A DNA stretch of 48,971 bases from assembly GCA_044447065.1 (NCBI GenBank), contig JBIOFK010000001.1:1-48971 (forward strand), in the 5' to 3' direction. The notes beneath the pieces were generated by a model. The model was not told where the DNA came from. It worked only from the letters and a program-made list of their open reading frames with translations, and ran no database searches. The translations under genes and the position numbers were made by a program. This DNA is from Actinomycetales bacterium. GTDB lineage: Bacteria > Actinomycetota > Actinomycetes > Actinomycetales > Micrococcaceae. Shown here piece after piece: positions 6,315 through 29,780 of this stretch. Each line of letters starts with the position of its first letter. Within the stretch, counting starts at the first letter, position 1.

Positions 6315-8387
6315 CTAGTCGTTGTTGCCGTGACCGCCGCCGTGGCCGTGGCCGTGGTCGGCCAGCGCCGCGGCCAGGCGGTAACTCATGCTGCCCACGC
6401 CCGTCACGTCGTCGTAGCCCTTGGCGGTAACCAGGGACGTGTCATGGTCCATGGTGAGCAGGTACTGGTTGCCCGAGGTCCTGCTGGTGTAGGCGAGCAC
6501 GGGCTGCTGGGCCAGCGGCCGAACGTCGTTGAAGACCTTCGGGCTGTCCTTGGCCACCTGGTACAGCACCGGATTTGCGAACCCGAGAACCTGTCCGGTG
6601 ACCTGCTGCGCCACAGCCACCTGGGCCGCGGTCAGCGGCGAGGCCAGCGACGTTCCGCCGTAGGTCACCGTGGTGTACGGGTCCGTGGAGAGCGTGCTGT
6701 CGTCGTTGATCGGGCTCAGGCCGATGGTGTACCCGGTGTACGGGTCAGCCAGGGATGATACGTCCGGGGAGACCCGCTTACCTTGGGCGAGGGAGTTGGG
6801 AACCACCCCGCGCTGGTAGAAGGGCTGGTCGAAGACGGCGCTGACGCCGCCGCCGGCACCCCCGCCGTAGGTGGTTCCCGGAAGCGGAGACGTGTAACTC
6901 TTACTGCCGTCCGGGTTGGTCACAATCTTGTCCAGGATGCCGCCCCAGCCGGTTTCGAACTGGTAGTTGCCGCGCTTGTCCACCGCCAGGGAGGTGCCGC
7001 CCACAGACGTGGCCCACGGCGAACTCGCCGGGAAGTCCGGCGAGGTGTAGCCCAACCGGGCGTTCTCGTCGCCGTTGTCACCGCTGGAGTAGTACAGGCC
7101 GATGCCTTCACCGGCTGCCTGCAGGTGGATGTTGACCTGTCCCTTGATGGCGTCCGCCGGAAGGGCCTCGCCCACGTTGCCATAGCTGTTGGAGACAATA
7201 TTGGCCAGCTTGTTGTCGAGGATCTTGGACATGGCGACATCGATACCGGCGCCGCAGTTGAAGGCACCTGCATAGAGGATGTTCGCCCCCGGTGCCAGGC
7301 CGTGCACGGAGTCAACGTCCAGGGCTTCCTCGCCCTGCCAGCCGCTCGGGAAACCGCAGGCCGCCTGGTCGACGAACTGGCTGGGAGTTGCGCTGATTTC
7401 CCGGTAGCTGGAGGAATTCATCTGCGGGAGGTTGTTGTCCCGGGAGAACTGGTTGACGTCCGCCAGCATGGTCGGGGACGCGTAGGCGTCGATGATGGCG
7501 ACCGTCTGGCCCTTGCCGTCCGCGGCGTTACCGTGGTTGCCCCGGTTGTCCGAATGGACGCCCTTGACATCGCCCAGACCGTACGCGCTCTGCAGCTGCT
7601 GCGGGGTGTACCCGCAGATGAAGGTGGGCGCCGTGGTCTTGCCGTATGCGGCCGGAATGGCGGCAATGTACTGGCCGAAATAGGTGGAGCACTGGGTGGA
7701 CACCGTCGCGGACTTGTCCGGTGCCGCGGCGTCCACCTGCGACGTGCTGGGCTTGACCCCGGCGGAGGAATTGTCATCCCCCTGCTTTTTCGAGTCCGGG
7801 TGCGTCATGAAACGGCTGCTGTCGATCGTGACGCCGGAAACCTTGCCGGCGATAGCGACCGGCAGTGAGGGAGCGGTGCTGGGGCCCACCAGGGTCTTGC
7901 CGCCCACGCTGTAGTTATGCAGCTGGGTGGCCATGGCCTTGTTGACCTGGTCGGCGGTGCCCCGGAACACAACGTACTGGCGGCTGTCCGGCACGGCGCT
8001 GATGGTCAGGCCCATGGAGGTCAGCTGGGCGACGACGGCGTCGGAGTCGGCCTTGGTGGGCGCGAACCGGGCAATCCACTGCTGCGGGCTCAGCCACTGC
8101 TTATAGGCCCTGTTGTCGGGTGAGGACACCGCCTGGGCGAAGGCTTCGGCGCCCTTCGCGTCGCGGAGCGGAAGAAAGATCTCGCCCTCCACGGTGGTGT
8201 CCGCCGCGGCGGCGCCCTGGTCATTGGCGGTCTTGGCCCAGGAGGGCACGGCACCGGGGAAGGAGGTGTCCGGTGACGGCGGCGCCGCCATCGCGGTCGT
8301 GGAGCCCAGGGTGACGGCACACGCGGTCGCTGCCCCGAAGGCCAGAATCCTGGCCAGCCTGCTGTGTTGCTTCAGTGAGTTGCCCAT
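6315..8387 (-). CDS. secreted S53 (sedolisin/kumamolisin-like) serine peptidase with pro-domain
   Basis: Frame of ORF 6315..8405; I prefer ATG 8387 (MGNSLKQHSRLARILAFGAATACAV..AMAAPP signal peptide). It has an N-terminal pro-kumamolisin-like activation region, SSGDNGDE, and the catalytic-Ser motif GGTSLASP. The tail is His/Gly-rich (HGHGHGGGHGNND). Confidence 0.85.
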   Translation of the reverse strand: MGNSLKQHSRLARILAFGAATACAVTLGSTTAMAAPPSPDTSFPGAVPSWAKTANDQGAAAADTTVEGEIFLPLRDAKGAEAFAQAVSSPDNRAYKQWLSPQQWIARFAPTKADSDAVVAQLTSMGLTISAVPDSRQYVVFRGTADQVNKAMATQLHNYSVGGKTLVGPSTAPSLPVAIAGKVSGVTIDSSRFMTHPDSKKQGDDNSSAGVKPSTSQVDAAAPDKSATVSTQCSTYFGQYIAAIPAAYGKTTAPTFICGYTPQQLQSAYGLGDVKGVHSDNRGNHGNAADGKGQTVAIIDAYASPTMLADVNQFSRDNNLPQMNSSSYREISATPSQFVDQAACGFPSGWQGEEALDVDSVHGLAPGANILYAGAFNCGAGIDVAMSKILDNKLANIVSNSYGNVGEALPADAIKGQVNIHLQAAGEGIGLYYSSGDNGDENARLGYTSPDFPASSPWATSVGGTSLAVDKRGNYQFETGWGGILDKIVTNPDGSKSYTSPLPGTTYGGGAGGGVSAVFDQPFYQRGVVPNSLAQGKRVSPDVSSLADPYTGYTIGLSPINDDSTLSTDPYTTVTYGGTSLASPLTAAQVAVAQQVTGQVLGFANPVLYQVAKDSPKVFNDVRPLAQQPVLAYTSRTSGNQYLLTMDHDTSLVTAKGYDDVTGVGSMSYRLAAALADHGHGHGGGHGNND

Positions 8388-8545
8388 TCGAGATCTTCCA
8401 CTCAACGAGGCACCTTTTGTGCCTGCACCCAGCCGACTGTATCCGCGGGAAGGCCACAGGCATAGTACCCACGGTCAAATAGTTCACAGGATTTTTACAG
8501 CGAAAAACAAAACGTGACCAAATCCGTTGTGCTAAGTCACTTTTT

Positions 8546-9323: not shown

Positions 9324-10119
9324 GGTGGCAGACTTTGACGGCCGCAGCGTTCGGGATATTGAATGCTGGCTCACGGACATGGACGGTGTGCTGGTCCACG
9401 AGAACCATGCGATCCCCGGCGCCGCCGAGCTGATCCAGCGCTGGGTGGACACGTCCAAGCGGTTCCTGGTGCTGACCAACAACTCCATCTACACCCCCCG
9501 GGACCTCTCCGCCCGGCTGCGCCAGTCCGGGCTGGAGGTGCCGGAGGAAAATCTGTGGACCTCGGCGCTGGCCACGGCGAAATTCCTCAAGGCCCAGCTG
9601 CCGGGCGGGCGGGCCTTCGTGATCGGCGAGGCCGGACTGACGACGGCGTTGCACGAGGCCGGCTTCATCCTCACCGACCAGGACCCCGACTACGTGGTCC
9701 TGGGCGAAACCCGGACGTATTCCTTCGAGGCCATCACGCGCGCGATCCGCCTGATCGGCGACGGCGCCCGCTTCATCGCCACGAACCCGGACGCCACCGG
9801 ACCGTCCAAGGAAGGGCCGATGCCGGCCACCGGCGCTATTGCGGCGCTGATCACCAAGGCCACGAACCGGGAGCCGTACATCGTCGGCAAACCGAACCCG
9901 ATGATGTTCCGCTCCGCGATGAACCAGATTGAGGCCCATTCGGAAACGACCGCCATGATCGGGGACCGGATGGACACGGATATCATCGCCGGAATGGAGG
10001 CCGGACTGCATACCGTGCTGGTGCTCAGCGGCATCACCCAGCCGGCGGACATTAAGGCCTACCCGTTCCGGCCGGACCAGACGCTGGATTCGGTGGCGGA
10101 CCTGCTGGCGCAGATCTAG
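9324..10119 (+). CDS. HAD-IIA family hydrolase (NagD-like phosphatase)
   Basis: Frame of ORF 9220..10119: LTDMDGV nucleophile motif, LTNNS, GKP and GDRMDTDI. The start is uncertain. GTG 9324 has GGAAGG 7 nt upstream; the TTG at 9220 is the longest option. Confidence 0.75.
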
Positions 10120-10743: not shown

Positions 10744-10840
10744 CCGGGGGCATGGCCGGCCCGACGGCCGGGGGCATGGCCGGCCCGACGGCCGGGGTAT
10801 GACCGGCCCGCCGGCCGGAGCGTGACCGGCCGGCGGGCCG
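10744..10840. repeat. 24-nt tandem repeat: 2 perfect plus about 2 degenerate copies
   Basis: CCGGGGGCATGGCCGGCCCGACGG at 10744-10767 and 10768-10791, followed by decaying copies (CCGGGGTATGACCGGCCCGCCGG, CCGGAGCGTGACCGGCCGGCGGG). Intergenic, between the GH3-fusion stop and the pyrE start. Confidence 0.8.
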
Positions 10841-10855
10841 GTCCGGTAAGGCGCG

Positions 10856-13138
10856 CTAGAGCCGGGTGCCGAAGGTGTCGCAGAAGACGTTCTCGTTGAA
10901 CGTGCCCTGGAAATCCGAGAGGCCCTGGATTTTCGCCACCGTGGCCCGGATGGCCTCGCGGGTGCCGGCATGGGCGTGGATGGCGGTCTTGACCATCGGC
11001 ACGTCGATCAGGTGGTTCGGCTGGTTCAGCGACACGAAAACGGTCGGGACTTCCGTGACGTACCACGGGATCTCCGCCGCCATCGGCGCGGACCACTTGA
11101 TCCGGATGGACGCCTCCTGCGCGAAGCCCTTGACGTCGGCGAACACGAAGGCAGCATCGTACTTCCGGGCGTAGTCCCCGGTGGCCTCCTCCCCCAGGGC
11201 GGACATGAAATTCACGCCCGTCTCCCCCGCGGCCTCGCGCTGGGCCGCAGTCTTGTACAGGTGCACCTCGAAACCGGCCGCTTCGAGTTCCTCCCTGACG
11301 GTGTCCAGGTACCCCAGCGGGTCCGCCCGGGTGAAGTCCGCGCCGCCGGAAATCCCGTACAGCCGGATGCGCCGGTGCGTCCGCGGGGTGATCGGCAGGT
11401 TGCCTGCGGTGTCCTTGACCAGCGTCACCGTCTTGTCGGCGATGGCGGCGGCGATGGCGTGGTGCTCCTCGCTGCCGACGAGCGCGAGCGCCTCCGGCCC
11501 CGCGACCAGCTCGTCCCGGGGCACCAGGTGCAGCCCGAGGGAAGCCTTGAGCGCCAGGATGCGCCGGAGCGCGTCCTCCAGCCGCTGTTCGGTGATGACT
11601 CCGTTGCGGTAGCCGGCCAGCATGTAGCCGAAGTCCTCCTCCGGATTCCTGAAGAACAGGAACATGTCACAGCCGGCCGCGATGGTGGCGGGCACCAGGT
11701 CCTCCCGCCGCATCGCCTGGGTCAGGCCGACCATCTGTGTCGCGTCGGTGAGGATCAGGCCGTTGAAGCCCAGTTCCCCGCGCAGCAGGTCCTGGAGCAG
11801 TTCCGGGGCGAGCGTGGCCGGCATGATCTGCCCGTCCTTGATGCCCGGCCGGAAGTGCCGGGACAGTTCGGGGGCGCCGATGTGCCCGGCCATCACGGAC
11901 TGGACCCCGAGGGCGATCATTTCCCGGTAGACGTGCCCGTAGGTTTTGTCCCACTCGCGGTAGCCCAGGGTGTTGTAGGAGGTGACGACGTGCTGGTCCC
12001 GTTCGTCGACGCCGTCGCCGGGGAAGTGCTTGATGGCGCACGCCATCGCGGATTCACTGATGCCGTCGAAGTACTCCTTGGCGCGCTCGGCCACCAGTTC
12101 CGGCGTATTGCCGAAGGCGCGGGTGGAGATGACGGTGTTGCGCCAGTTGTAGTGGATGTCCACGATCGGGGCGAACGCCCAGTTACAGCCGATGGCGGTG
12201 CATTCGACGCCGGCCACCTGCCCCATCTGGCGGGCAATGTTCTTGTCCGGGTGCGAGCCCGCCTGCAGGTGGGTGCAGACAAAGGTCCCGTCGTCGCAGC
12301 TGCCGAAACCGCCCATCTCCGGGTTGGACGCCACCAGCAGGGGGATCTTGCTCTTGGACTGGGCGTAGCGGATGTGCTCCTGGACCTCGGCGGCGGACCC
12401 GGGCCGGTAGCGCATCGCTCCGACGTGGTACCGCTCCAGCACGCCGTCAAGGTAGGCCGGGGAGTAGTCGTTGTTGTGGTTGATGAACAGCTGGCCGATC
12501 TTTTCCTCGACGCTCATCGCCGCGATCGTGGATTCCACCCAGGCGACGGCCCCGTCGTCGAGGTTGAACGGGGCGGCGCGCATGTCCACCCGGTGGCTCA
12601 GCTCCGCGCCGGGCCGGGCGAGCGATGACTGAACGGACCTCAGGTCCGCCACGGAGGCGGCGACGACGTCGTCCACGTGTCCGGCGATGTCGACCACGAA
12701 GCCGAGCTCATCCGCGGCCAGCGGCTCCAGGGTCTGCAGCTGGGATTCCAGCAGCGCCACCGGCATGAAATGTCCGCTGCGCCCCTCCAGCCGGGACCCG
12801 AGCACCTCGCGGCTGCCCTCAAGGTGCAGGAACGCGGTCCCGGGGGCGGTGGCGCGGATGGCGTCCCGGTAGCTGCGTTTGAGCGCCGAACAGGCCACCA
12901 CCAGCCCGTGGGTGCCGGCCGCGGCCAGCTCCTTGCCCACGGTCTCCAGCCAGGGCCAGCGGTCCTCGTCGGTCAGCGGGGTGCCCGCCGCCATCTTGGC
13001 CACGTTGGCGACCGGGTGCAGCGAGTCACCGTCGATGAACGGGATGCCGAGCTCATGGGCCACGAGGGCGCCGATGGTCGTTTTTCCGGAGCCGGACACG
13101 CCCATCACGACGATCCGCGGCATAGTGTCAGCGCTCAC
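10856..13138 (-). CDS. fusion protein: N-terminal GntK/IdnK-type gluconokinase domain plus glycoside hydrolase family 3 (NagZ/beta-glucosidase-like) domains
   Basis: Single 760-codon ORF. Residues 1 to about 170 carry GVSGSGKTT (P-loop), FIDGDSLHP and [11 protein letters not shown], which indicate gluconokinase. Residues about 200-760 carry EKIGQLF, KHFPGDG and [10 protein letters not shown] (GH3 nucleophile context) plus a C-terminal alpha/beta domain. No in-frame stop separates the two parts. GTG 13138 overlaps the manD stop (GTGA); an alternative start is ATG 13123. Confidence 0.85.
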
Positions 13139-14364
13139 CAGTCATGCACCGTGCCGTCGGCCAGCCGGTTGTACGGCAGGTAGGCCTGCTGGTAGGGGTA
13201 GGACGCCGCGGCCTCCTCGTTGAGTTCGACGCCGAGTCCCGGCGCCTCCCCCGGGTGCAGGTAGCCGTCGGTGAAGGTGAGCGACTGTTCGAAGACGGTA
13301 TTGGTGGCGTCGCTGTGCTCCATGTACTCCTGGATGCCGAAGTTGTGGATGGCCAGGCCGACGTGGGTCTGGGCAGCCAGGCCGACCGGGGAGACATCCG
13401 TGGGCCCGTGGAAGCCGGACTTGATCTGGTACTGCGCGGCGTAGTCCATCACCTTCTTCAGCGGGGAAATACCGCCGAAGTGGGTGGAAGCGGCGCGGAC
13501 GTAGTCGATCAGCTGTTCCCTGATGAGTGTTTGGAAGTCGAAGACGGTATTGAAGATTTCGCCCACGGCCAGCGGGGTGGTGGTGTGCTGGCGGACCAGC
13601 CGGAACGCGTCCTGGTTTTCGGCTGGGGTGCAGTCCTCGAGCCAGAACAGGTCGTAGGGCTCGAGGGACTTGCCCAGCTTTGCGGCCTGGATGGGCGTCA
13701 TCCGGTGGTGGCCGTCGTGCAGCAGGGGCAGCTCCGGGCCGAATTCGCTGCGGACCGCTTCGAAGACTGTGGGGATGTGGCGCAGGTACGCGCGGGTGTC
13801 CCAGTCCTCCTCGGCCGGCTGGGCGCCGCGGCCCGCGGGCTCGTAGTCGTACCGTTCGCCGGTGGACTGGGCCTGGGCCGCCACACCGTAAACCGCCTTG
13901 ACACCGGGGATGGACGACTGCACCCGGATGGACTTGTAGCCCTCCTCGAGGTGCTGGCGGATGGAGTCGAAGAGCTCCGGCACGTCCCGGCCGGAGGCGT
14001 GGCCGTAGGTGCGCAGCCCGGTCCGTGATGCGCCGCCGAGCAGCTGGTAGACCGGCAGCCCTGCCACCTTGCCCTTGATGTCCCACAGGGCCATGTCGAC
14101 GGCGGCGATGGCGGCCATCGTGACGGGGCCACGGCGCCAGTAGGCGCTGCGGTACAGGAACTGCCAGGTATCCTCGATGCGGTGCGGATCCTTGCCGATC
14201 AGCAGCGGGACCACATGCTCCTTGAGGTACGCGGCGACGCCGAGCTCCCGGCCGTTCAGGGTGGCGTCACCGAGCCCGGTGAAGCCCTCGTCGGTGGCGA
14301 TCTTAAGGGTCACAAAGTTGCGGCTGGGACTGGTGACTATCACGTCGGCGGAAATGATCTTCAT
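13135..14364 (-). CDS. manD: D-mannonate dehydratase, enolase-superfamily ManD type
   Basis: ORF 13135..14364: [60 protein letters not shown] and a C-terminal DGTVHDW. By eye it is co-linear with characterised ManD proteins. Confidence 0.88.
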
Positions 14365-14392: not shown

Positions 14393-15841
14393 TCAGTGGT
14401 TGTCGGTCGGGGAGGCCGACGGCGGGGCCGCCACCGGGCCGGCGCGGCGGGCGGCGATCTCGGCGACGATCTCCTTGTGCCTGGCGTCGGTCAGCGGGTA
14501 GATCAGCATGATGCCCAGGGCGAGCAGGGCGAAGATGAACGGCAGCAGGCCGGCGCCAGCCCGGATGCCCAGCAGGGCGTGCGCGCTCTGGACGTGGGCC
14601 GTGGAGGAATAGCCGCCCCAGGCCAGCGCATAGGCAGCGAGCGCGCCGCCGACGGCCTGTCCCGTCTTGCGGGTGAAGGAGAACAGCGCATAGGTGATCC
14701 CTTCGGTGCGGACGTGGGTCTTCCACTCCCCATACTCCACCGTGTCGGCCTCGAGCGCCCAGACGAGCATGTTCACCAGGATGATGCCGGCCTGGGTGAT
14801 GATGATGCCGGCGAAGGCCAGCGGCACCATCGACGCCGGGGCGAAGAAGACCATCAGCCCGCCAACGGCCATCAGGGCGGCGAAGGCGATGTAGCTCTTC
14901 TTCTTGCCGAACCTCTTCACCACGCGGGGCAGGAAGGCCGCGCCTCCGAAGGTCAGCACAATGTTGATGATGGAAATGACGGCGTACAGGCCCAGGGAGT
15001 GCAGGACGTCGCGGAAGTAGTAGATCTGCACTGTGGACAGGGCAAGGTAGCCGGTCAGGAACAGGAACGAGCTGATGCACAGCAGCAGCAGCGGCTTGTT
15101 GCCCTTCAGCGTCGCCAGGCTCTGCTTCATCGAGACCTTCGGGACTTCGCGGACCACCCGTTCCTTGGCCGTCGCGACGGTGAAGAAGTACAGCCCGGTG
15201 CCGAGCACTGCGAAAACGACCGTCAGGGTGGTGAACAGCGGCTGCAGGTTGACGCCGTGCACCATCAACGGGGCGATGAAAATGCCCAGGAAGGACCCGA
15301 CGGCAACGGCACCGATGGTGCGCGCGCTGGCGAGTTTGGCGCGCTCGGTGGCGACCTGGGTCATGGCCCCGGCCAGGGAGCCGTACGGGATGTTGACCAT
15401 ACTGTAGGCCAGCCCCAGCAGGGTGTAGCTGACGTAGGCCCAGATCAGCATCCCGGTCTGGCCGATCTGCGGGATCGAGAAACTGGCCACGCTGAGCAGC
15501 AGCAGCGGGATGGAGCCGAACATGATGAACGGGCGGAACTTGCCGAATTTCCTGCTGTAGGTCCTGTCCACCATGCGCCCGGCGAAAATGTCCGAGAACG
15601 CGTCGAAGATGCGCACCACCAGCAGCAGGGTTCCCGCCGCGGCGGCGCTGATGCCCGCCACATCCGTGTAATACAGCAGCAGGAACATCGTGGCGGTGGT
15701 GAAGGCCAGGTTGTTCGCTGCGTCGCCAGCCCCGTAACCCAGAATGCTGAGCTTGGGCAGCGGCGTGAGCGCCGCATTGGATTCCGCCGGGGTCGGTGCC
15801 GGTGCGGGGGCTATCGGTTCTTTCGATGCGGTCATGGCCAT
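14393..15841 (-). CDS. MFS transporter, glycoside-pentoside-hexuronide (GPH):cation symporter family
   Basis: ORF 14393..15841: [43 protein letters not shown] and [15 protein letters not shown] are the GPH signature region. AGGAG RBS. Confidence 0.88.
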
Positions 15842-15990: not shown

Positions 15991-16010
15991 TTTGGCAACC
16001 GTTTGCCAAA
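15991..16010. promoter_or_regulatory. LacI-type palindromic operator, copy 1 (TTTGGCAACCGTTTGCCAAA)
   Basis: It sits inside the 26-bp near-palindrome ATATTTGGCAACCGTTTGCCAAATAT, 150 nt upstream of the GPH transporter start. The same 20-mer family recurs at 18918, 27626 and 29761. Confidence 0.7.
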
Positions 16011-16065: not shown

Positions 16066-17472
16066 TCAGCCGACCTGGGCGGGATTGAACGCCCCGACGG
16101 CCGCCTGCAGGCGCTCCACGAGGCCGGTGTTGAGTCCCAGCTCCGGATCCAGCAGGGACAGCAGCGCCGGGACATCACCGCCGTCGGGCTCGGCCAGGGC
16201 CCTGGCAATGCCCCCGGCCGCCGCGTCGGAGACCGGCCGGCCCTGGTCGCGGGCGGAGCGCAGGAAGGCGACCCAGGCGGCAATCAGGCGCAGGGCGCCG
16301 GCGCCGCTGCGGTCTGCGGCCAGTTCCGCCGTCAATACCGGCACGGCCCGCATCCGGAGTTTGCTGGATCCCTCCATGGCGATCTGGGCCAGGAAGTGGG
16401 CGATCCTGCTGTTGGAGAAACGGCCCAGCAGCGCCTCGCGATAGGCGGGAAGGCCGAGCCCGTCGGCGGGCAGGTGCCGTTCGGCCTCGTCCCAGAACTC
16501 ACCGATCCAGCTCCTGCATTCGGCGTCGCCGAGCGCCTCGGCGACGGTCTCGCAGCCGCGCAGCGAACCGGCGTAGGCCAGCAGCGAGTGGGCGCCGTTG
16601 AGCAGCCACAGCTTGCGGTTCTCGAACGGTTCGATGTCCTCGACAAAGGTGGCGCCGGCGGATTCCCAGTGCGGCCGCCCGGCCGGGAAGGAGCCGCTGA
16701 GGATCCAGTCCGTGAAGGGTTCGGTGACGACCGCGGCGTTGTCGAGGTAGCCGCCGCGGGCGGCGAGTTCCAGGTCGGCGTCGGTGGTGCGCGGGGTGAT
16801 CCGGTCCACGGAGGTTCCGACAAAACTGATATTGCCGTCGATCCAGGTGGCCAGCGCCGGGTCGGCCGCGGCCGCGAGATCGCGGACGGCGGTCCGGGCG
16901 GCAGCGGCGTTATTCGCGAGGTTGTCGCAGGAGACGACGGCCATCGGTCCCGCCCCGCTGCGACGGCGCTGAGCCAGCGCCTGCACCAGCCGGCCCGCCG
17001 CCGTCGTTGCCCATCGCGGCTCTGCGGCACTGGCGGCCACGGCGGCCCGCAGGATTTCGACGTCGGCCACCACAGCCGGCAGGGTGAAATCGACGCCGCC
17101 CGCCGCGGTGAGGTTGTAGGCCGGTTCGGTGATGGTGAGGGTCACGATGGCAGTGGATTCCGCGGCGACCAGGGCCGCGAGCCGGGCGACGTCGGCGCCG
17201 TCGTTCGCCTCCACGATGGAGTGGACGACCTCGAAGCTGTCCCCGCCCCCCGACCGTTCGATCAGCGTGTAGAGCCCGTCCTGGGCCGCCAGGGTCACCG
17301 CGGCGTCGGGCCGCCGTCCGGTGAAGGCCGCTATCCCCCAGCCGGCCGCGTCGGCGGCGTGCTGGGTGTACCACGCCTGGTGGGCGCGGTGGAACGCGCC
17401 GAGGCCGAGGTGGACGATGCGGATGGGCGGGACCGGTTCGGTACTGCGCCGGTGCAGCAGTGCCGCGCTCAC
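16066..17472 (-). CDS. uxuB: mannitol dehydrogenase family oxidoreductase (fructuronate reductase / D-mannonate oxidoreductase-like)
   Basis: ORF 16066..17472: IVHLGLGAFHRAHQAWYT, VSCDNL and NGAHSLLAY. The GTG start overlaps the uxaC stop (GTGA). Confidence 0.8.
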   Translation of the reverse strand: MSAALLHRRSTEPVPPIRIVHLGLGAFHRAHQAWYTQHAADAAGWGIAAFTGRRPDAAVTLAAQDGLYTLIERSGGGDSFEVVHSIVEANDGADVARLAALVAAESTAIVTLTITEPAYNLTAAGGVDFTLPAVVADVEILRAAVAASAAEPRWATTAAGRLVQALAQRRRSGAGPMAVVSCDNLANNAAAARTAVRDLAAAADPALATWIDGNISFVGTSVDRITPRTTDADLELAARGGYLDNAAVVTEPFTDWILSGSFPAGRPHWESAGATFVEDIEPFENRKLWLLNGAHSLLAYAGSLRGCETVAEALGDAECRSWIGEFWDEAERHLPADGLGLPAYREALLGRFSNSRIAHFLAQIAMEGSSKLRMRAVPVLTAELAADRSGAGALRLIAAWVAFLRSARDQGRPVSDAAAGGIARALAEPDGGDVPALLSLLDPELGLNTGLVERLQAAVGAFNPAQVG

Positions 17473-18890
17473 AGTTTGAAGGCCCTGCGCGGTGCGGCGT
17501 CGACGACGTCCACAATGATGGCGGCGGCCCGTTCCTCGGAGACCCGGCGTTCGGCGACCAGCCGGGCCAGGAAGCTAGCCTCGATGCGCCGGGACGTGTC
17601 GTGCCGCGCCGGGATGGAGCAGAACGCCCGGGTGTCGTCGATGAACCCGGAGGACCGGGAGAAACCCGCGGTCTCCGTCACGGCCGAACGGAACCGGAGC
17701 ATCGCGTCGGGGGCATCCAGGAACCACCAGGGCGCACCGATGAAGACGGACGGGTAGAAGCCGGCCAGCGGCGCGATTTCCCGGCTGAAAGCCGTCTCGT
17801 CAATGGTGAACGGAATGAGGTGGAACCCGGGGGCGGAGCCGAAGTCCTCCAGCAGCGGCCGCAGCCCGTTCGTGTAGTCCACGGCAAAGGGAATGTCGTG
17901 GCCCGTGTCGGGCCCGTAGGCCTCAAAGGTCGGCCGGTGGTGGTTGCGGGCAACGCCGGGATGGATTGTCATCACCAGTCCGTCCTCGGCGGACATCCGG
18001 GCCATCTGGTAGGTCATGTGCGCCTCGAAGATGTCGGCCTCGGCGGCTGTCGCCTCGCCGCGGCGGCCCTTGTCGAAGAGGTCTTGGGCGTCGGCGCCGT
18101 CCAGCCTGAGCGTCAGCGGCGCGCGCGTGCCGTGATCGGCGGAGACCGCCCCGTGCCCGATAAAGTACTGCCGGCGGTTGGCCAGGGCCCGGAGATAACC
18201 GGGAAAGCCTGCCTGCCCGTCGCCGGCCGCGGCGATGAGCCGCTCGACGTTGTCAGGGAATTCCGCATGGCCGAACTTGATGTAGGCGTCCGGGCGGAAG
18301 GTGGGCAGCACCCGGCCGGTAAAGTCCGCGTCGGCCGCGAGGGCCGCATGCGCGGCCAGGTCATCGAGCGGATCGTCGGTGGTGGCCAGGACTTCGATAT
18401 TGAAGTCGGTGAACAGGCGGCGGGGCCGGAACTCCGGCTCCGCCAGCCGGGCGCTCAGCGCGTCGTAGAGCGCGTCGGCCGCGGCGGCAGAGGGGTCGCG
18501 GTCCAGGCCGCTGAGGTCGAGGCGGAAGACGTGCTCGAATTCCTGCCGGATCCAGTAGCCGGAGGCCGTTCCGTCGAACGCCGGCCACGCCTTGCAGAAT
18601 TCCTGCCAGGCCACGCGCGGCTCGGCCGTCGGATTCGGTCCCATCCGCAGCCTGTCCAGCCCGACGCCGCCGGCGTGGATGAGCCGGGTGACGTAGTGGT
18701 CCGGAGTCACGAGCAGCGTGGCCGGGTCCGGGAACGGTGTGTCCTCCAGCAGCATGCGAGGATCGACGTGTCCGTGCGGCGAGAGGATCGGCAGCCGTTC
18801 CACGAGGCCAAAGAGGCTGCGGGCGATTTTCCTGGTGCCGGGATCCGCGGGCAGGAGCCTGTCCGGATCGGCTGCAATCGACTGTGACAT
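17469..18890 (-). CDS. uxaC: glucuronate isomerase
   Basis: ORF 17469..18890: LPILSPHGHVDP, VTPDHYVTRL, IHPGV and FIDDTRAF are typical UxaC blocks. Confidence 0.9.
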   Translation of the reverse strand: MSQSIAADPDRLLPADPGTRKIARSLFGLVERLPILSPHGHVDPRMLLEDTPFPDPATLLVTPDHYVTRLIHAGGVGLDRLRMGPNPTAEPRVAWQEFCKAWPAFDGTASGYWIRQEFEHVFRLDLSGLDRDPSAAAADALYDALSARLAEPEFRPRRLFTDFNIEVLATTDDPLDDLAAHAALAADADFTGRVLPTFRPDAYIKFGHAEFPDNVERLIAAAGDGQAGFPGYLRALANRRQYFIGHGAVSADHGTRAPLTLRLDGADAQDLFDKGRRGEATAAEADIFEAHMTYQMARMSAEDGLVMTIHPGVARNHHRPTFEAYGPDTGHDIPFAVDYTNGLRPLLEDFGSAPGFHLIPFTIDETAFSREIAPLAGFYPSVFIGAPWWFLDAPDAMLRFRSAVTETAGFSRSSGFIDDTRAFCSIPARHDTSRRIEASFLARLVAERRVSEERAAAIIVDVVDAAPRRAFKL

Positions 18891-18917: not shown

Positions 18918-18937
18918 TTTGTCAACCGGTTGCCAAA
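18918..18937. promoter_or_regulatory. LacI-type palindromic operator, copy 2 (TTTGTCAACCGGTTGCCAAA)
   Basis: 28 nt upstream of the uxaC start codon and 15 nt downstream of the LacI stop. One mismatch from a perfect palindrome. Confidence 0.7.
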
Positions 18938-18951: not shown

Positions 18952-20004
18952 CTATTTCGCGGGCGGCCGTCCCGTGGAACCCCGCAGCACGAGCGAGGTG
19001 ACCAGGGCGGCCGAGGGGAGCCGGCCGTGCGCCTCGTTGAGGTCGAGGAGAATACGCTGCAGGGCATCCTGGCCGGATTCATGCAGCGGCGAGCGGATGG
19101 TCGACAGGGGCGGAGTCGTGAAATCGGAACCGAAAATGTTGTCAAAACCCAAGATGCTCAGGTCGTCCGGTATGCGGATGCCGGCCAGCTGCAGTTCCTG
19201 CATGAGGCCGATGGCCATGAGGTCGTTATAGCAGAACACCGCGGTGGCGCCGCTGTCGAGCACGGCGGCGGCAGCCCGGCGTCCGCCGTCGAGCGTCGGC
19301 ACCCCGGAGGCGACCTCGCTCACTGTCAGGCCTGACCACCGGCAGCGGGCCTGGATGCTCTCCCAGCGCCGCGCCGACATCCAGGACCGTTCGGGTCCGG
19401 CAACATAGGCCACACAGCCGTGTCCCAGCGCCGCCAGATGGCGCACCGCGTCCGTGACCCCGACGTCGGTGTCCGCAACCACCGAATGCACGCCCTCGAC
19501 CAGGCGGTTGATGACGGAGACCGGCTTGTTCGCCGCGAGGTCCCGGATCTGCTGGTCCGACAGCCGGGGACTGGCAAGGATGATGCCGTCCACGGTGGCC
19601 AGCATGCGCCGGGCCGCGGTCAGCTCCGTGTCGGCAGATTCCGCGGACTCCGCGAGCACGAGGGTGTAGTCGCCGTCGGCGGCCGCCTGCTCGGCACCGC
19701 GGATCACGTCGAAATAGGCCGGGTTGGTGATGTCCGAAACGATCAGGCCGACGGTGCGGGTCCGGCCGGTCGGCAGGGCACGGGCAAAGACGTTCACCTG
19801 GTAGTTCAGCTCCGCGGCGGCGTCCTCGATGATCTTTTGCGTCTTGGCGCTCACCCTGCCGGGTTTCGTCAGGGCGCGGGACACGGTGGAGGGATTGACC
19901 CCGGCGAGCCTGGCGATGTCGTAGATGGTTGCCGCGGACTTGGCGCCGCGGACGGTTCCCTCCTCGGCGCCGGTCCCCGCCTGTGCCCTGCTGGTAGTGC
20001 TCAC
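18952..20004 (-). CDS. LacI family transcriptional regulator (LacI-1)
   Basis: Frame of ORF 18952..20034, with the start set at GTG 20004 (GGAGG 4 nt upstream). It has the HTH IYDIARLAGVNPSTVSRAL plus a periplasmic-binding-protein-like effector domain. Confidence 0.88.
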   Translation of the reverse strand: MSTTSRAQAGTGAEEGTVRGAKSAATIYDIARLAGVNPSTVSRALTKPGRVSAKTQKIIEDAAAELNYQVNVFARALPTGRTRTVGLIVSDITNPAYFDVIRGAEQAAADGDYTLVLAESAESADTELTAARRMLATVDGIILASPRLSDQQIRDLAANKPVSVINRLVEGVHSVVADTDVGVTDAVRHLAALGHGCVAYVAGPERSWMSARRWESIQARCRWSGLTVSEVASGVPTLDGGRRAAAAVLDSGATAVFCYNDLMAIGLMQELQLAGIRIPDDLSILGFDNIFGSDFTTPPLSTIRSPLHESGQDALQRILLDLNEAHGRLPSAALVTSLVLRGSTGRPPAK

Positions 20005-20044
20005 TCGTCCTCCACGTTCGTTGTCCCTCCACATCGTAGCCCGC

Positions 20045-20125: not shown

Positions 20126-21292
20126 CTAGGCGCGCTCGGGGTACTTCCCTTCCTTGCGGATCCGCTGGTTCAGCAGTTCCAGGTATTCATCCTCGTCGAA
20201 GTCGAGCGGGACCTCGGCGCCCTTCCAGCTGGAGAGGTGGATGGCGTTGGCGAGCCGGACTCCGTTGATGCCGTCCGAGCCGGGGGCCAGCAGCGGCGTG
20301 CCGTCCAGGATGTTGGCGGCGAAATTCTCCAGCACGCCGGCATGCTGGGCGCCCCAGGCCGAGTCGAATTCGATGACCTCCTCGGTCAGGAAGTCGTCCA
20401 TGTCCAGCTGTCCGCGGAACAGCTTGCCCACGTCCTCCGGCCCCATGCTGTCGCTGAGTTCGCGTTCGGGCTTCTTCAGCCGTGTGACGGTGGCCCGTTT
20501 GCTCTCCTCCACGACAATCTTGCCCTGGTCGCCGAGGATCTCGAAGCGGTCCGTTCCTGTCAGGTCGTGGGTGGCGGTGACGAAGGTTCCGGTAACGCCG
20601 TTTCCATAGTCGACGACGGCGGTCACCTCGTCTTCCGTGGCGATGTCCCGGCGGAAGCCGTAGGAGACCTTGGCGAAGACCGACGTCGGTACTCCGCAGA
20701 TCCACTGCCAGAGGTCGAGCTGGTGCGGCGCCTGGTTGACGAGCACGCCGCCGCCTTCGCCGCCCCAGGTCGCGCGCCAGGCGCTCTGGTTGTAGTAGCC
20801 CTGCGGCCGCCACCAGGTGGTGATGATCCAGTTGGTCCGGCGGATCGCGCCGATTTCGCCGTTGTCGACGATCTCCTTCAGCCGCTTGTAGAGCGGGTTG
20901 TTCCGCTGGTTGAACATGATGCCGAAGGTCAGTTCCGGCTTCGTCGCCGCGAAGGCGTTGAGCTCCTTGACCTGCTTGGTGTACACGCCGGCAGGCTTCT
21001 CCACCAGCGCGTGGATGTTGTTCTTCAGCGCGGCAATGCCGATTTCCGGGTGCAGGTAGTGCGGAACGCAGGTGACGACGGCGTCCACGTCGCCGCTGGT
21101 GATCATGTCCAGGTAGTCGTCGTAAAACGGAACGTCCGGGTAGGTTCCGGCGGCCGCCGCCTTCTTGGCGGGGTCGGTGTCGCTGATGGCGCCGATAACC
21201 ATGTTGGGCACCTGGCCGCCGGTAATGAATCCGGCGTACATACTGCCCTGGGCGCCGAGGCCGATGATGCCGAGGCGGACTGGATTGCTCAT
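20126..21292 (-). CDS. Gfo/Idh/MocA family oxidoreductase (GFO-B)
   Basis: ORF 20126..21292: N-terminal Rossmann fold RLGIIGLGAQG, then EKP and the motif AWRATWGGEGGGVLVNQAPHQLDL of the GFO C-terminal domain. Confidence 0.88.
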   Translation of the reverse strand: MSNPVRLGIIGLGAQGSMYAGFITGGQVPNMVIGAISDTDPAKKAAAAGTYPDVPFYDDYLDMITSGDVDAVVTCVPHYLHPEIGIAALKNNIHALVEKPAGVYTKQVKELNAFAATKPELTFGIMFNQRNNPLYKRLKEIVDNGEIGAIRRTNWIITTWWRPQGYYNQSAWRATWGGEGGGVLVNQAPHQLDLWQWICGVPTSVFAKVSYGFRRDIATEDEVTAVVDYGNGVTGTFVTATHDLTGTDRFEILGDQGKIVVEESKRATVTRLKKPERELSDSMGPEDVGKLFRGQLDMDDFLTEEVIEFDSAWGAQHAGVLENFAANILDGTPLLAPGSDGINGVRLANAIHLSSWKGAEVPLDFDEDEYLELLNQRIRKEGKYPERA

Positions 21293-23134: not shown

Positions 23135-23138
<4 letters not shown>

Positions 23139-24982
23139 GATGAAACCTCCTCGGTCTGTCCTGCGGCGGTACCTGCGGCGACCAGCATGGTCATCGGTTC
23201 CTTACCCTCCAGCATGGAGTCCAGCAGCGTGCGGGTATAGGGGTCCGCGGGGTTGGACAGAATGTCCCGCACCGGGCCCTCCTCCACCAGCCTGCCGTTT
23301 TGCATGACGACGACGCGGTCACACAGATCCGCGACGACGCCGAAGTTGTGGGTCACCAGGACCACGCCCATCGTGTACCGGGCCTGCAGATCCCGCAGCA
23401 GATCCAGTACCTCCGCCTGCACGGTGACGTCCAGGGCTGTGGTGGGCTCGTCGGCGATCAGCAGGTCAGGATTGCAGCTGACCGCCCCGGCAATCAGGAC
23501 GCGCTGGGCCATACCGCCGGACACCTCATGCGGATAGGCCGCGAACGTCCGCTCCGGGTCGTTGATCCCCACAATGCCCAGCAGCTCCAGCGCCCGGGCC
23601 CTGGCCTGGCTGCGCGGGATTCCCAGCACCTTCACCATCGGACGGACCAGCTGGTGCCCGATAGTGAAATTAGGATCCAGGTTGCTCATCGGCTCCTGCG
23701 GAATGTAGGCGATGCGCTTCCCCCGCAGTGCCGCCATCCGTCCCTGCGAGAGGCGTCCGCCTTCCGCGGAGACGAGCGGGACCCCGTCAAAGACCACCGT
23801 GCCGCCGGTAATCTCCGCCTCGTCCGGCAACAGCCCGAGAATGGAGAACGCCGTCTGCGTCTTACCCGAACCGGATTCCCCCACAATGCCGAGCACTTCG
23901 CCACGGTCCACGTGCAGCGAAACGTCCGATACCACTGTTTTGATCCGGCCGCCGGGCTGCGGGTAGCCCACACCCAGCCCGGTGACCGTCAGCAGGTGCC
24001 CGGCCGAATCCGCGCCCGCACCGATACGCTCCGCACCCGTGTTGGTGTTGGCGCCGGTGGCGGCTTGGCTCGACGGACTCCGCCGGGCGCCCCGTTTGAT
24101 TTTTGCCGGCTTAGGTGAATCCTCCAACGCATCACGGAGAGCGTTGCCCAAGACGACGAAGGCCCCGATGGTCAGGGAAATAGCGATGGCCGGCCAGACC
24201 GCCAGAACCGGGCTGGTAAAGATGTTGATGAAGCCTTCGTTGAGCATCACGCCCCAGGTGGGAGTCTGCGGATCGCCCAGACCCAGGAATTCCAACGTGG
24301 CCTGGATGGAGATCGCGATGCCGCACACGATCGAGGTCTGGATGATCAGCGGCGCACGCACCACAAAGAGGATGTGACGGCCGATAATGCGTCCATTGCT
24401 CAGTCCCGCGACCCGGGCCGCGTCCACATAGAGTTCGTTGCGGACGGTCTGCACCGTGGTCCTGGTCAGCCTGAAAATCCCGGGGGACATCAGCACACCA
24501 AAGACGGTCATCGAAATCCACACGCTCTTGCCCAGCGCAGCACTGGCCGCCAACAGGATGATGATGGCCGGCAGGGACATCAGGACGTTGGTGAACCAAC
24601 TGGCCACCGAATCGAACCAGCCGCCGAAGAAGCCTGCCGTCAGCCCGGACGGAAGGCCGATGACCACCGCCACGGCCGCGGCAAGCGCCGCCGCGATCAG
24701 GGTGCTTCGAGCGCCCACGATCAGGCGGCTGAAGACGTCCCGGCCGGCACTGTCCGTGCCGAGCAGGTTCGCGCCGCCGGGGGTTTGCAGCGCAGTGCTC
24801 AGTGACGCATGGTTGGGGTCGAAGGGAGCCACGCAGGGTCCGATGATCGCCGCGATCACCATAATTGCCAGGAAAGTCACTGCAGCGACACCAAGCGGAT
24901 TACGCCACAGACGACGCAGGACGCCGCTTCGGGCGCTTTCTTCGAGCTGCTCGACTTTCAAGTTCGCAATAACGTCGGTCAT
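23135..24982 (-). CDS. fused ABC transporter permease (DppC/OppC-like) and ATP-binding (DppD/OppD-like) protein
   Basis: Frame of ORF 23135..25009, with the start at ATG 24982 (ATGA overlap with the upstream permease stop). The N-terminal ~290 aa are a multi-TM permease (LWRNPLGVAAV...). The C-terminal ~300 aa carry GESGSGKTQ, VSGGMAQRV, LLIADEPTTALD and DPYTRTLL. Confidence 0.88.
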
Positions 24983-25920
24983 GACACACGCGCCTTCGGA
25001 TTCAGCCAACCGACCACGAGGTCGACCAGCAGATTGACGATCACAACGATCAGGACGATGTACACCACAACGCCCATCAGTACGGGCATATCGCCCTGGG
25101 TCGTGGACTGCAGCGCCAAAAACCCCATCCCCGGCAGCGCGAAGATCTGCTCAATCACCACCACTCCGCCGAGCATGTTGATGAACTGCAGCGACAGGAC
25201 GGTCAACCCGGCCGGAGCGGCGCCGCGGAGCACGTGCCGGAAAAGGACCTCCCGCGGTGACAGTCCCCGGCTGCGCAAGGTGCGGACGTAGTCCTTCGAC
25301 AGCACCCCGATGGTCGCACTGCGCACCTGCTGCGCGGTGGAGGCAATCGCTCCGATCGCCAGCGCCACGACGGGCAGCACCAGCGATCCTGCCCAGCCGC
25401 CCGGGCTGTCACCCAGCGGGATATACCCGGTGGCAGGGAACCAGTGCAGGCTGATGGCAAACACCGTCACCACGACGATGGCGATCACAAACTGCGGAAC
25501 TGCGGCCCCGGCAATCGAAACCACCTGAAGCACCCGGTCCACCCAGCCGCGGCGCACGGCCGCGGCAATGCCAATCAGGGTGGAGAGAACGGCGACGATG
25601 ACGATGGTGACAACCACCACCGAAAGGGTCGTGGGCAGCCGGTCCAGAATGCTGCCGACCACCGGCTGGCTCGTGAACCAGGATGCGCCGAAGTCCCCGT
25701 GGACGATTCCGCCGAGCCAGTGCAGATAACGGCTCACCAGCGGCTGGTCCAGGCCCAGCTCAATCTGCTTCTGATGAACCTGCGCCTGGGTCGCGGTCTC
25801 GCCCAGGATATTGCGGGCAACATCGGTGGCGGAGAAGTACAAGAGGAAGAACGTCAACGTCGAGACGACGAAGAGAACAACAACACCGGAAACAATCCGG
25901 CGAATGATAAAGGAAACCAT
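24979..25920 (-). CDS. ABC transporter permease, DppB/OppB-like
   Basis: ORF 24979..25920: MVSFIIRRIVSGVVVLFVVSTLTFFL and the EAA-type loop region ...DYVRTLRSRGLS.... Confidence 0.9.
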   Translation of the reverse strand: MVSFIIRRIVSGVVVLFVVSTLTFFLLYFSATDVARNILGETATQAQVHQKQIELGLDQPLVSRYLHWLGGIVHGDFGASWFTSQPVVGSILDRLPTTLSVVVVTIVIVAVLSTLIGIAAAVRRGWVDRVLQVVSIAGAAVPQFVIAIVVVTVFAISLHWFPATGYIPLGDSPGGWAGSLVLPVVALAIGAIASTAQQVRSATIGVLSKDYVRTLRSRGLSPREVLFRHVLRGAAPAGLTVLSLQFINMLGGVVVIEQIFALPGMGFLALQSTTQGDMPVLMGVVVYIVLIVVIVNLLVDLVVGWLNPKARVS

Positions 25921-27625: not shown

Positions 27626-27645
27626 TTTGGCAACCGATTGTCAAA
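27626..27645. promoter_or_regulatory. LacI-type palindromic operator, copy 3 (TTTGGCAACCGATTGTCAAA)
   Basis: 99 nt upstream of the SBP start. It is flanked by extra half-site-like TTGGCA (27617-27622) and TGACAA (27650-27655). Confidence 0.65.
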
Positions 27646-27742: not shown

Positions 27743-28750
27743 TCAGCTGACGATATCGCCCAGGTCCGGGTAGTTCTGGCGGTAGAGATCCTTGATGATG
27801 AACAGCGATTTGGCGGCTTCGGCCGGGTCGATCCAGAACGCTCCCGGGGCCTGGAGCTGCGCATAGAAGTCCCTGATCAGCAGTTCATGGGACGCTCCCC
27901 AGTAGGCCCGCCAGCCGGCCTTGGCCGCGCGTTCCGGCACGACCTCGATGCGGCCGTCGGCGTATCGGACTGTCAGGTCGCCGGACAGGCTGAGCACGGC
28001 CTCCTCGGTCACGACCTCGAGGGTGACCGGGGAGTTGACGACATTCGCCAGCGTGGCGTAAAAGACGCTGCGGGCGCCGTTCGCATGGTCCAGCACCAGC
28101 TCTGCGGTGTCCTCGACCTCGATGGCGTCCCCCAGGACATGGGTCGCCGTCCGCCCGGTGACAGCACTCACCTCGCCCACCAGCCACTGCAGCAGGTCCA
28201 GCGTATGGATGGCCTGGTTCATCATCAGGCCCCCGCCCCCGTCGGCCCAGGTGCCGCGCCACGGGCTGCTGCGGTAATAGTCGGCCGTGCGGGTCCACTT
28301 AACAGTGGCGGAGCAGCCCAGCACGGCACCCAGAGTCCCGCCGGCCAGCAGCTCGTACATGGCCTGCGAGGTCGCGTTGTAGCGGTTTTGAAAACAGACC
28401 GCGATCTTCGCGGTGCTGCGCGCTGCCGCCTCGATCACCCGCCGCCCGTCGGCCGCGGTGGAGGCCAGCGGCTTTTCCGTCAGGACGTTCACCCCGGCGT
28501 CGAGGGCGTCCACGGCAAGGGCCGCGTGCTGCGAATGCGGGGTGCAAAGGTGGACCACGTCCGGCCGTACCGAGCTGAGCAGCTCCCGATGGTCGGCGAA
28601 GCCGGGTACTCCGTACCGGGCTGACGCCGCCGCCAGCCTGCCGCCGTCGACGTCGCAGACCGCCACCAATTCGGCGTCGGCGATGTTCTCCACCGCCTCG
28701 AAATGGACACTGGACACGTCGCCGCAACCGATGATTGCCACCCTGGTCAT
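27743..28750 (-). CDS. Gfo/Idh/MocA family oxidoreductase (GFO-A)
   Basis: Frame of ORF 27743..28771, with the start at ATG 28750 (GGAGAA RBS). RVAIIGCGDV, TEKPL and PWRGTWADGGGGLMMNQAIHTLDLL are present. Confidence 0.88.
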   Translation of the reverse strand: MTRVAIIGCGDVSSVHFEAVENIADAELVAVCDVDGGRLAAASARYGVPGFADHRELLSSVRPDVVHLCTPHSQHAALAVDALDAGVNVLTEKPLASTAADGRRVIEAAARSTAKIAVCFQNRYNATSQAMYELLAGGTLGAVLGCSATVKWTRTADYYRSSPWRGTWADGGGGLMMNQAIHTLDLLQWLVGEVSAVTGRTATHVLGDAIEVEDTAELVLDHANGARSVFYATLANVVNSPVTLEVVTEEAVLSLSGDLTVRYADGRIEVVPERAAKAGWRAYWGASHELLIRDFYAQLQAPGAFWIDPAEAAKSLFIIKDLYRQNYPDLGDIVS

Positions 28751-28832
28751 GCGTTCTCCTTCCGCGGGCACCGTCGCCCGTCCCTGCGTGCTGGCCGCCG
28801 GAAGCCCGGCGGCACCTACGTTGGCGTGCAGC

Positions 28833-29760: not shown

Positions 29761-29780
29761 TATGACAACCGATTGCCAAA
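29761..29780. promoter_or_regulatory. LacI-type palindromic operator, copy 4 (TATGACAACCGATTGCCAAA)
   Basis: Lies in the divergent region: 77 nt upstream of the TIM-A start and 123 nt upstream of the LacI-2 start. Confidence 0.65.

Follow-up and report, generated by a model that had tools for sequence, protein, structure and literature searches.

A gluconate kinase-type domain fused to a BglP-like GH3 enzyme in a predicted sugar-acid regulon of Micrococcaceae

The gene described here is located in a member of the Micrococcaceae (Actinomycetales bacterium, GenBank assembly GCA_044447065.1, contig JBIOFK010000001.1, positions 1 to 48,971 of the forward strand); this whole stretch of 48,971 nucleotides is referred to as the window. 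The gene encodes one polypeptide in which a gluconate kinase domain of the GntK/IdnK type precedes an enzyme of glycoside hydrolase family 3 (GH3). Both domains belong to well-known families, and the protein is a lineage-specific fusion of known enzyme types, with no new enzyme family or mechanism. Its main value is as a functional clue to an unstudied GH3 subclass.

The kinase part was compared with Escherichia coli GntK/IdnK (1KNQ series) and the structures 3T61 and 4EUN, with which it has the whole domain, the P-loop, and the conserved motifs in common. Those kinases are stand-alone proteins of ~175–200 aa, whereas the fusion kinase has a 590-residue C-terminal extension and is encoded after manD (D-mannonate dehydratase). 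For the GH3 part, the reference was BglP, an enzyme from a metagenome (PDB 5VQD/5VQE) with the same two-domain architecture over 570 residues, the sequence KHFPGDG...RDQH, and the nucleophile in GLI(L/C)TDA. BglP differs in being stand-alone, in having M-Y-R where the fusion has R243-Y-R245, and in having Asp and Glu where the fusion has H329 and R333. The BglP subclass also travels with beta-phosphoglucomutase (beta-PGM), and the fusion GH3 does not. BglP and Nag3 are retaining GH3 phosphorylases owing to their His/Asp dyad, and BglP acts on cello-oligosaccharides (review PMC8950772). In uncharacterised beta-PGM::GH3 fusions (clusters P0131, P0173, and P0237), a small enzyme is likewise located at the GH3 N-terminus, where it presumably processes one of the GH3 products, but the partner is a TIGR01990 beta-PGM rather than a kinase, the GH3 belongs to an M/L243-R245 subclass, and the gene context is another.

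Three further systems are comparable in their logic. In cellobionate catabolism (Neurospora crassa, Xanthomonas), a beta-glucosyl aldonate is cleaved by a GH94 phosphorylase or a beta-glucosidase and the gluconate is phosphorylated; the fungal route pairs glycoside cleavage with gluconokinase (PMC4537572), and the +1 site of GH94 cellobionic acid phosphorylase takes gluconate and glucuronate (PMC4336185). These systems differ in that GH94 is inverting and the activities reside in separate proteins, and they are not known to be linked to uxaC, uxuB, or manD. The beta-glucuronidase SN243 demonstrates that GH3 enzymes can act on uronides; it has a His/Asp dyad like the fusion GH3, and an active-site Arg recognises the carboxylate (bioRxiv 10.1101/2022.04.25.489410). 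However, SN243 was made as an 821-aa construct, and the larger ORF behind it has a predicted signal sequence and a transmembrane domain, so that SN243 is no cytoplasmic enzyme. It most resembles classical beta-glucosidases and is absent from the PDB matches of the fusion protein, and its Arg136 is no more than a possible counterpart of R243/R245. With E. coli uidABC/uxaC-uxuAB, the window shares a GPH-family glucuronide transporter, glucuronate isomerase, fructuronate reductase, and a repressor. In place of UxuA the window has ManD, its cluster has neither a GH2 beta-glucuronidase (GUS) nor the 2-keto-3-deoxygluconate (KDG) kinase KdgK, and the kinase-GH3 fusion is added. The neighbourhood is glucuronide-like, and the fusion GH3 is not homologous to GH2 GUS.

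The features of the fusion gene are as follows.

10856..13138, minus strand: gntK::GH3 fusion ORF, 760 aa from GTG or 755 aa from ATG at 13123; stop codon at 10856-10858
12638..13117, minus strand: GntK/IdnK-type gluconate kinase domain, residues 8-167 (TIGR01313; alignments with 3T61, 4EUN, and 1KNQ); P-loop GVSGSGKT at 13079-13102
12578..12637, minus strand: interdomain linker, residues 168-187 (alignment of relatives and junction comparison with the split loci L028, L031, and L035)
10859..12577, minus strand: two-domain GH3 of the NagZ/BglP lineage, residues 188-760 (5VQD alignment; PF00933)
11552-12511, minus strand: Pfam GH3 N-terminal barrel, residues 210-529 (PF00933, E 5.5e-56)
12404..12412, minus strand: subclass-marking motif R243-Y244-R245, located where predicted barrel strand beta2 ends
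11990..11998, minus strand: D381-Q382-H383, predicted Asp-His acid/base dyad, by alignment the counterpart of RDQH in BglP and of D(S/T)H in NagZ structures
11744..11746, minus strand: D465 in GLILTDA, predicted catalytic nucleophile, aligned with GLICTDA of BglP

The original prediction, made from the sequence of the window, had described a single uninterrupted ORF of 760 codons joining a complete kinase in frame to a GH3 enzyme directly after manD, and all of this held. The ORF runs from 13138 to 10856 on the minus strand, and the quoted motifs were present (GVSGSGKTT at residues 13-21, the KH-containing motif at residues 370-376, GLILTDA at residues 460-466). Its GC content at third codon positions (0.93) matches that of other real genes in the window (67% GC), where the long antisense ORFs of high-GC DNA are without the codon pattern of real genes.

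The collections searched were 5.8 billion proteins for best matches, a species-level genome collection for the census of fused and split loci, and 1.84 billion representatives clustered at 50% identity. The best 120 database matches were all full-length (740–792 aa, at least 99% coverage, 78–83% identity) and came from Arthrobacter, Pseudarthrobacter, and Micrococcaceae genomes as well as metagenomes; ACL38786.1/B8HCK3, from the finished genome of Pseudarthrobacter chlorophenolicus, was among the fusion matches. The fusion clade in the species-level collection comprised 30 loci with GH3 parts 80–85% identical. Its junction was open in 25, a stop codon split the gene in three, and the remaining two were frameshifted within GH3. 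Matches across both domains fell into a single cluster of representatives (P0121); other relatives of the GH3 part were stand-alone proteins of 550–600 aa, bar a few with different fusion partners. Judged by these collections, the fusion is phylogenetically narrow, being confined to one Micrococcaceae clade, within which it is conserved across soil bacteria of the Arthrobacter group.

Since the best 120 matches were all full-length and 25 of the 30 clade genomes share the open junction, a frameshift or lost stop codon specific to this assembly, which the original prediction had kept as the trivial alternative, is excluded; more than 100 independent full-length sequences, finished genomes included, speak decisively against an artefact. 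The same prediction had proposed a full-length database comparison and allowed for this strain being a lone exception among relatives with two separate genes. The relatives proved to be mostly fused, and the split state in three of them, which it had missed, is the ancestral one.

These three (L028, L031, and L035) come from Arthrobacter sp. TWP1-1, A. psychrolactophilus B7, and a Specibacter, and their genes are arranged as manD, gntK (175 aa), a stop codon, a spacer of 27–60 nt with a GGAG-type ribosome-binding site, and GH3 (581 aa), with identities of 72–73% and 81% over the gntK-stop-GH3 arrangement. Both domains of the fusion are thus separate adjacent genes in related genomes. Because these relatives keep manD-gntK-stop-GH3 in this order, the fusion can be traced to a single lineage of Micrococcaceae, in which the stop codon separating two neighbours in the operon was lost. 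Genes that adjoin each other in operons commonly fuse in evolution. The linker is about 10–35 residues long in relatives, rich in Ala, Gly, and Pro, and variable in sequence; the N-terminus of the split-locus GH3 matches it, and by this comparison it goes back to the stop codon of gntK, the spacer behind it, and the N-terminus of the GH3 protein. The three split genomes have a second stand-alone gntK just downstream, 66% identical to type A (see below). A search for stand-alone gntK in fusion-carrying genomes returned mostly kinases of cold-adapted Arthrobacter and of Specibacter, plus fragments of the fusion.

The GTG start of the fusion (13138-13136) overlaps the manD stop (TGA, 13137-13135), as had been predicted, but an in-frame ATG (13123-13121), 12 nt past the manD stop, is an equally good start. 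In relatives, the manD stop may be TGA, TAA, or TAG, and 28–112 nt separate it from the P-loop Met. The tight operon linkage of manD and the fusion is therefore conserved and the GTGA overlap not, so conserved translational coupling through it was rejected. An internal translation start at Met186 was also considered as a conserved feature and rejected, as relatives have Leu there. In Arthrobacter sp. 92 (L018, ~9340-9430), the leader from manD to the P-loop holds a run of ~10 CCGCCC hexamers, a simple-sequence repeat whose translation would give the protein an N-terminal tail rich in Pro and Ala.

Two types of kinase module exist in the clade, A (the window and the three split loci) and B (Paenarthrobacter, A. 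cavernae, A. globiformis, and others). The two groups are L008, L009, L015-L017, L020, L021, L026, L029, and L030 on one side, and the window with L001, L003, L004, L007, L010-L014, L018, L019, L022-L025, L027, and L078 on the other. Kinase identity is 83% within types and 60% between them. GH3 (86% identical) and ManD (94%) have no corresponding split. DNA identity between A and B drops to ~64–74% only over the kinase and linker, with flanks at 86–96%. This confined trough indicates at least one replacement of the kinase module, through recombination or through a second fusion, within an architecture that itself persisted, which counts against a purely accidental arrangement.

The N-terminal domain scored above the NCBIfam cut-off for gluconokinase (TIGR01313, 189.1 bits vs 113.75, residues 9-163, profile positions 1-159 of 164) and below those of two equivalog models (NF008583, 141 vs 265; NF007336, 134 vs 304). 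Residues 8-172 matched the gluconokinase structures 3T61 (E 1.5e-48), 4EUN, and E. coli GntK 1KNQ (residues 10-164, E 3e-38), and local alignments gave ~50% identity to stand-alone gluconokinases including E. coli GntK. The motifs GVSGSGKT, DGDxLHP, DRxPWL, CSALKRxYRD, and RxGHFMP are kept, the same in both kinase types. Sequence comparison found no substitutions setting this kinase apart from ordinary gluconate kinases and no clade-specific changes. The domain is, by these matches, a complete GntK/IdnK-family kinase with predicted gluconate specificity; the original prediction had named the type correctly and missed that the sequence gives no support for a changed specificity.

Residues 188-758 align end to end with a single 5VQD chain (E 1e-113, ~50% identity), and the C-terminal 230 residues, which have no Pfam assignment, are therefore the second domain of a BglP-type GH3, with no extra module. 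Membership of GH3 follows from the N-terminal barrel profile and from K370-H371 and D465, which align with BglP. The sequence KHFPG-x-G-x4-D-x-H at residues 370-383, in place of a Glu acid/base in the C-terminal domain, places the enzyme in the NagZ/BglP lineage with its His-Asp dyad; the earlier GH3 label was thus right but had overlooked that this is not a classical Glu-type beta-glucosidase. D381-Q382-H383 and D465 were invariant in 50 fusion proteins.

Within this lineage, a NagZ-type beta-N-acetylglucosaminidase for cell-wall recycling would agree with IMG names such as 'beta-N-acetylhexosaminidase' and with a partial match to the equivalog model NF003740. That match reached 112.7 bits, far below the cut-off of 207, so the common name is unlikely to be right. 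In addition, Gln382 occupies the Ser/Thr position of NagZ enzymes, giving the D-Q-H of BglP instead of D-S/T-H, and the neighbourhood is one of sugar-acid catabolism, not of murein recycling. The Gln reportedly makes BglP a glucoside rather than an N-acetylglucosamine enzyme. A NagZ function is, on these grounds, highly improbable.

BglP itself suggests another function, in which the GH3 turns neutral beta-glucosides into beta-glucose 1-phosphate and has an incidental kinase attached to it. The ~50% identity to BglP and the conserved dyad with its Gln fit this, and other lineages fuse this GH3 type to beta-PGM: three other 50%-identity clusters (P0131, P0173, and P0237) have TIGR01990 above its cut-off, and four further GH3 relatives immediately adjoin a beta-PGM/HAD gene (L055 9405-9971; L082 9324-9881; L090 473-1132; L091 176-835). 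All seven of these beta-PGM-linked members, and BglP, have M/L-x-R at positions 243-245. The fusion clade has both arginines (R243-Y-R245), and 46 unfused loci of Actinobacteria and Firmicutes, here called the R243 class, have R-x-(N/Q/M). Beta-PGM was fused or adjacent in 7/7 members of the M/L243-R245 subclass; none (0/46) of the R243-class loci had it within 10 kb, nor did any fusion-clade locus. As the fusion and the R243 class are without beta-PGM and differ at positions 243-245, the beta-glucose-1-phosphate logic of BglP should not be transferred automatically to the fusion GH3, in which the dyad Gln is present and the M/L-x-R signature and the beta-PGM association are lacking. We hold the BglP-type function to be very unlikely here. 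The M/L-x-R signature is an empirical marker from the present comparison, with no published definition; on strand beta2, it may be a sequence marker of true phosphorylases forming beta-glucose 1-phosphate.

No general gain of basic residues was found in the catalytic barrel compared with BglP, the net charge being similar in all groups; the only local changes standing out were R243, H329, and R333. R243 and R245 are candidate contacts for a substrate carboxylate.

The genes around unfused GH3 relatives point in two directions. In Microbacteriaceae (GH3 67–74% identical), the GH3 gene is followed by a gene for 6-phosphogluconate dehydrogenase (gnd) in Mycetocola and Agrococcus, and the order is GH3-uxaC-uxuB-gnd in Microbacterium. 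The downstream genes in these three genera are as follows.

L034, 11908-13347: 6-phosphogluconate dehydrogenase
L038, 11817-13250: 6-phosphogluconate dehydrogenase
L037, 14561-16006: 6-phosphogluconate dehydrogenase

The same gene was also close in two further loci (L076 and L048), a Nostocoides and a Eubacteriales locus, and in L042, an actinomycetotal metagenome-assembled genome with a 57% identical GH3, the order is MFS transporter, classical beta-glucosidase, GPH, GH3, gntK. The second direction is hexuronate catabolism: uxaC, uxuB, and GPH accompany GH3 in Dermatophilaceae, Microlunatus, Nakamurella, and many Firmicutes, among which L080, L086, L047, and L073 have uxaC-GPH-GH3 triads with GH3 in place of GUS. 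The gene of the closest stand-alone GH3 representative overlaps a GPH gene beside GH88 and GH2 genes. Within 10 kb of the 46 unfused R243-class loci, uxaC was present in 15, a GPH transporter in 15, and 6-phosphogluconate dehydrogenase in five. As unfused relatives adjoin uxaC/uxuB/GPH or gntK/gnd, the associations with hexuronate catabolism and with the branch from gluconate to 6-phosphogluconate both recur independently of the fusion.

The fusion is the last gene of an operon GPH transporter-manD-fusion. On the minus strand the order is a LacI-family gene, uxaC, a uxuB-like gene, a 225-nt gap, GPH, manD, the fusion, a hairpin, and pyrE; uxaC and the uxuB-like gene overlap by 4 nt. The features of this region are as follows.

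18952..20034, minus strand: LacI-family regulator, candidate repressor of the regulon (family assignment)
18918..18937: operator-like palindrome TTTGTCAACCGGTTGCCAAA, between the LacI-family gene and uxaC
17469-18890, minus strand: uxaC, glucuronate isomerase (NF002794, 534 bits vs cut-off 387)
16066-17472, minus strand: uxuB-like reductase of the mannitol dehydrogenase family (PF01232/PF08125)
15991..16010: operator-like palindrome TTTGGCAACCGTTTGCCAAA, upstream of the GPH-manD-fusion operon
14393..15841, minus strand: GPH-family symporter at the head of the operon, by score a glucuronide transporter (NF007353, 578 bits vs cut-off 528; TIGR00792)
13135..14364, minus strand: manD, D-mannonate dehydratase of the enolase superfamily (NF043051, 692 bits vs cut-off 550; PDB matches of the ManD subgroup at E 1e-160 or better)
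10801..10843: GC-rich perfect hairpin with 18-nt arms and no T-tract, 13 nt past the fusion stop, likely the operon end
27626-27645: operator-like site upstream of an Opp-type ABC transporter operon whose last genes encode a TIM-barrel protein and a Gfo/Idh/MocA oxidoreductase
29761-29780: operator-like site at a second TIM-barrel/oxidoreductase pair

The 20-bp palindrome TTTGNCAACCGNTTGNCAAA thus has four sites in the window, against 0.01 expected. It is kept in relatives, and in Mycetocola (L034 9901-9918) it is located directly upstream of the unfused GH3 of the GH3-gnd pair. Since the palindrome is common to the catabolic operons, the fusion is assigned to a predicted LacI-type regulon of ~19 kb. 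When the operon boundaries were scanned for consensus elements, neither a sigma-70 promoter nor a terminator with a T-tract came up, as expected in a high-GC actinobacterium. Throughout the clade the core uxaC-uxuB-...-manD-kinase-GH3 is constant and the transporter varies (GPH, CUT1-type ABC, or none nearby).

From this context we favour, at about an even chance, a bifunctional cytoplasmic enzyme whose GH3 domain would cleave an imported acidic beta-glycoside and whose kinase domain would make 6-phosphogluconate from gluconate. The regulon transporters would import an acidic beta-glycoside containing a uronate or aldonate. The exo-acting GH3, probably cytoplasmic and without a signal peptide because the N-terminus is the kinase, would cleave it by hydrolysis or possibly phosphorolysis. 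UxaC, UxuB, and ManD would convert the uronate moiety to KDG, and the kinase would phosphorylate D-gluconate to 6-phosphogluconate. The gluconate would either be the released aglycone or be made from the released sugar, possibly by the Gfo/Idh/MocA enzymes of the regulon. The fusion would hold both activities at 1:1 stoichiometry. Support beyond the fusion itself comes by association, from the gntK/gnd linkage, the uronate linkage, and the shared operator. The original prediction had joined glycoside cleavage to 6-phosphorylation of a sugar acid, and gntK in L042 and 6-phosphogluconate dehydrogenase in Microbacteriaceae are compatible with that idea as an association, not as proof.

Several observations weigh against the gluconate kinase-glycosidase proposal. 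The window has no 6-phosphogluconate dehydrogenase and no gluconate permease. The kinase always follows manD, whose product KDG needs a kinase. KdgK and Eda are not encoded anywhere in the window, which bears out the earlier statement that the module lacks KdgK, nor did they turn up in the 10-kb flanks of the three fusion loci whose neighbours have Pfam annotation. The gnd linkage in three Microbacteriaceae genera could be inherited synteny and not three independent events. A GH2 beta-glucuronidase is encoded between uxuB and the GPH gene in two members (L003 1818-3614 and Arthrobacter sp. PAMC25564 228825-230633; PMC8171050). In the window GH2 GUS is absent, and the uxuB-GPH interval consists of the 225-nt intergenic region only. 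In those two members the GH3 is therefore not needed as a glucuronidase. Finally, an AlphaFold2 full-length model built with 50 fusion sequences (mean pLDDT 54.6, pTM 0.46) was too poor to place R243/R245 or to judge domain packing, because the alignment was too shallow.

Some of these points fit a different division of labour, in which the R243-class GH3 is a new type of cytoplasmic beta-glucuronidase and the GntK-like domain phosphorylates KDG (or D-mannonate) after ManD, replacing the PfkB-type KdgK. The invariant manD-kinase order in the clade and the missing KdgK and Eda agree with it, as do the GPH symporter scoring above the glucuronide-transporter cut-off and the unfused GH3 that stands in for GUS in the four Firmicutes triads. 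SN243 provides a proven beta-glucuronidase among His-Asp-dyad GH3 enzymes, with an Arg that binds the C6 carboxylate, and R243 separates the class from the BglP/beta-PGM class. The second stand-alone gntK beside the operon in three relatives would permit subfunctionalisation. Yet the kinase keeps every GntK motif at ~50% identity to stand-alone gluconokinases, with no clade-specific residue changes; the gntK/gnd linkage of unfused relatives occurs without manD; and GH2 GUS is co-resident in L003 and PAMC25564. We know of no GntK-family KDG kinase. On balance this division of labour is considered unlikely. If true, one polypeptide would both open and complete a self-contained pathway from glucuronide to 2-keto-3-deoxy-6-phosphogluconate, with no GH2 GUS or PfkB KdgK. 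In a variant of the same reading, the Gfo/Idh/MocA enzymes would oxidise an imported aldobiouronic disaccharide at C1, and GH3 would split the resulting uronosyl-gluconate.

It is also conceivable that an ordinary gluconate kinase and a beta-glycosidase with unrelated jobs were joined only through adjacency, and harmlessly so. The loss of one stop codon suffices for this, the linker is unconstrained in length and sequence, split versions persist, and the architecture makes up a single cluster among the 50%-identity representatives. Against such neutrality, other families, with another gene order, also have gntK or gnd beside the unfused GH3, three genera have kept the architecture although the kinase module was exchanged, and an operator-defined regulon is common to the fusion and other catabolic genes. 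We regard a neutral fusion as quite unlikely.

To our knowledge, BglP-like GH3 enzymes have no established natural substrate. Literature searches returned no paper describing the fusion or a wider link of this GH3 class to sugar-acid genes, and those on GH3 links to beta-PGM or uxaC and on the Arthrobacter/ManD context returned nothing specific. The fusion, together with the links to uxaC/uxuB, GPH, and 6-phosphogluconate dehydrogenase, offers a concrete and cheaply testable substrate hypothesis: a large, unstudied, beta-PGM-free subclass of NagZ/BglP-type enzymes with R243 may work on acidic beta-glycosides (uronides, aldobionic acids, and aldobiouronic acids). More than 100 copies of the fusion are already in public databases under inconsistent names, and the names of these 760-aa proteins ('gluconokinase', 'glycosyl hydrolase', or 'beta-N-acetylhexosaminidase') can be corrected. 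Pseudarthrobacter and A. psychrolactophilus form a natural fused/split pair for asking whether the fusion improves flux.

Other observations were made in the window. Between the fusion stop and pyrE (10756-10843), the GC-rich palindromic 16-mer CCGGCCCGNCGGCCGG is present in direct copies at 10756, 10780, and 10803, and once more in inverted orientation at 10826-10841. At the core of the hairpin at 10801-10843 are the last two of these copies. A terminator array is one possible explanation, a small repeat element another. The regulon contains a second gene fusion (23135-25009, minus strand), a 624-aa protein combining an OppC-type permease (OppC_N, BPD_transp_1) with an ABC ATPase (ABC_tran, oligo_HPY); the equivalent position in L037 is occupied by an ORF of 731 aa. 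The regulon's Gfo/Idh/MocA oxidoreductases (20126-21292 and 27743-28771) are listed as GH109 in the CAZyme table of a relative (PMC8171050), and one of them matches the glycoside 3-dehydrogenase family NF058561 weakly; these enzymes may take part in oxidative cleavage of glycosides. A 696-aa protein with a pro-kumamolisin activation domain (sedolisin-type peptidase), unrelated to the fusion, is encoded at 6315-8405 on the minus strand.

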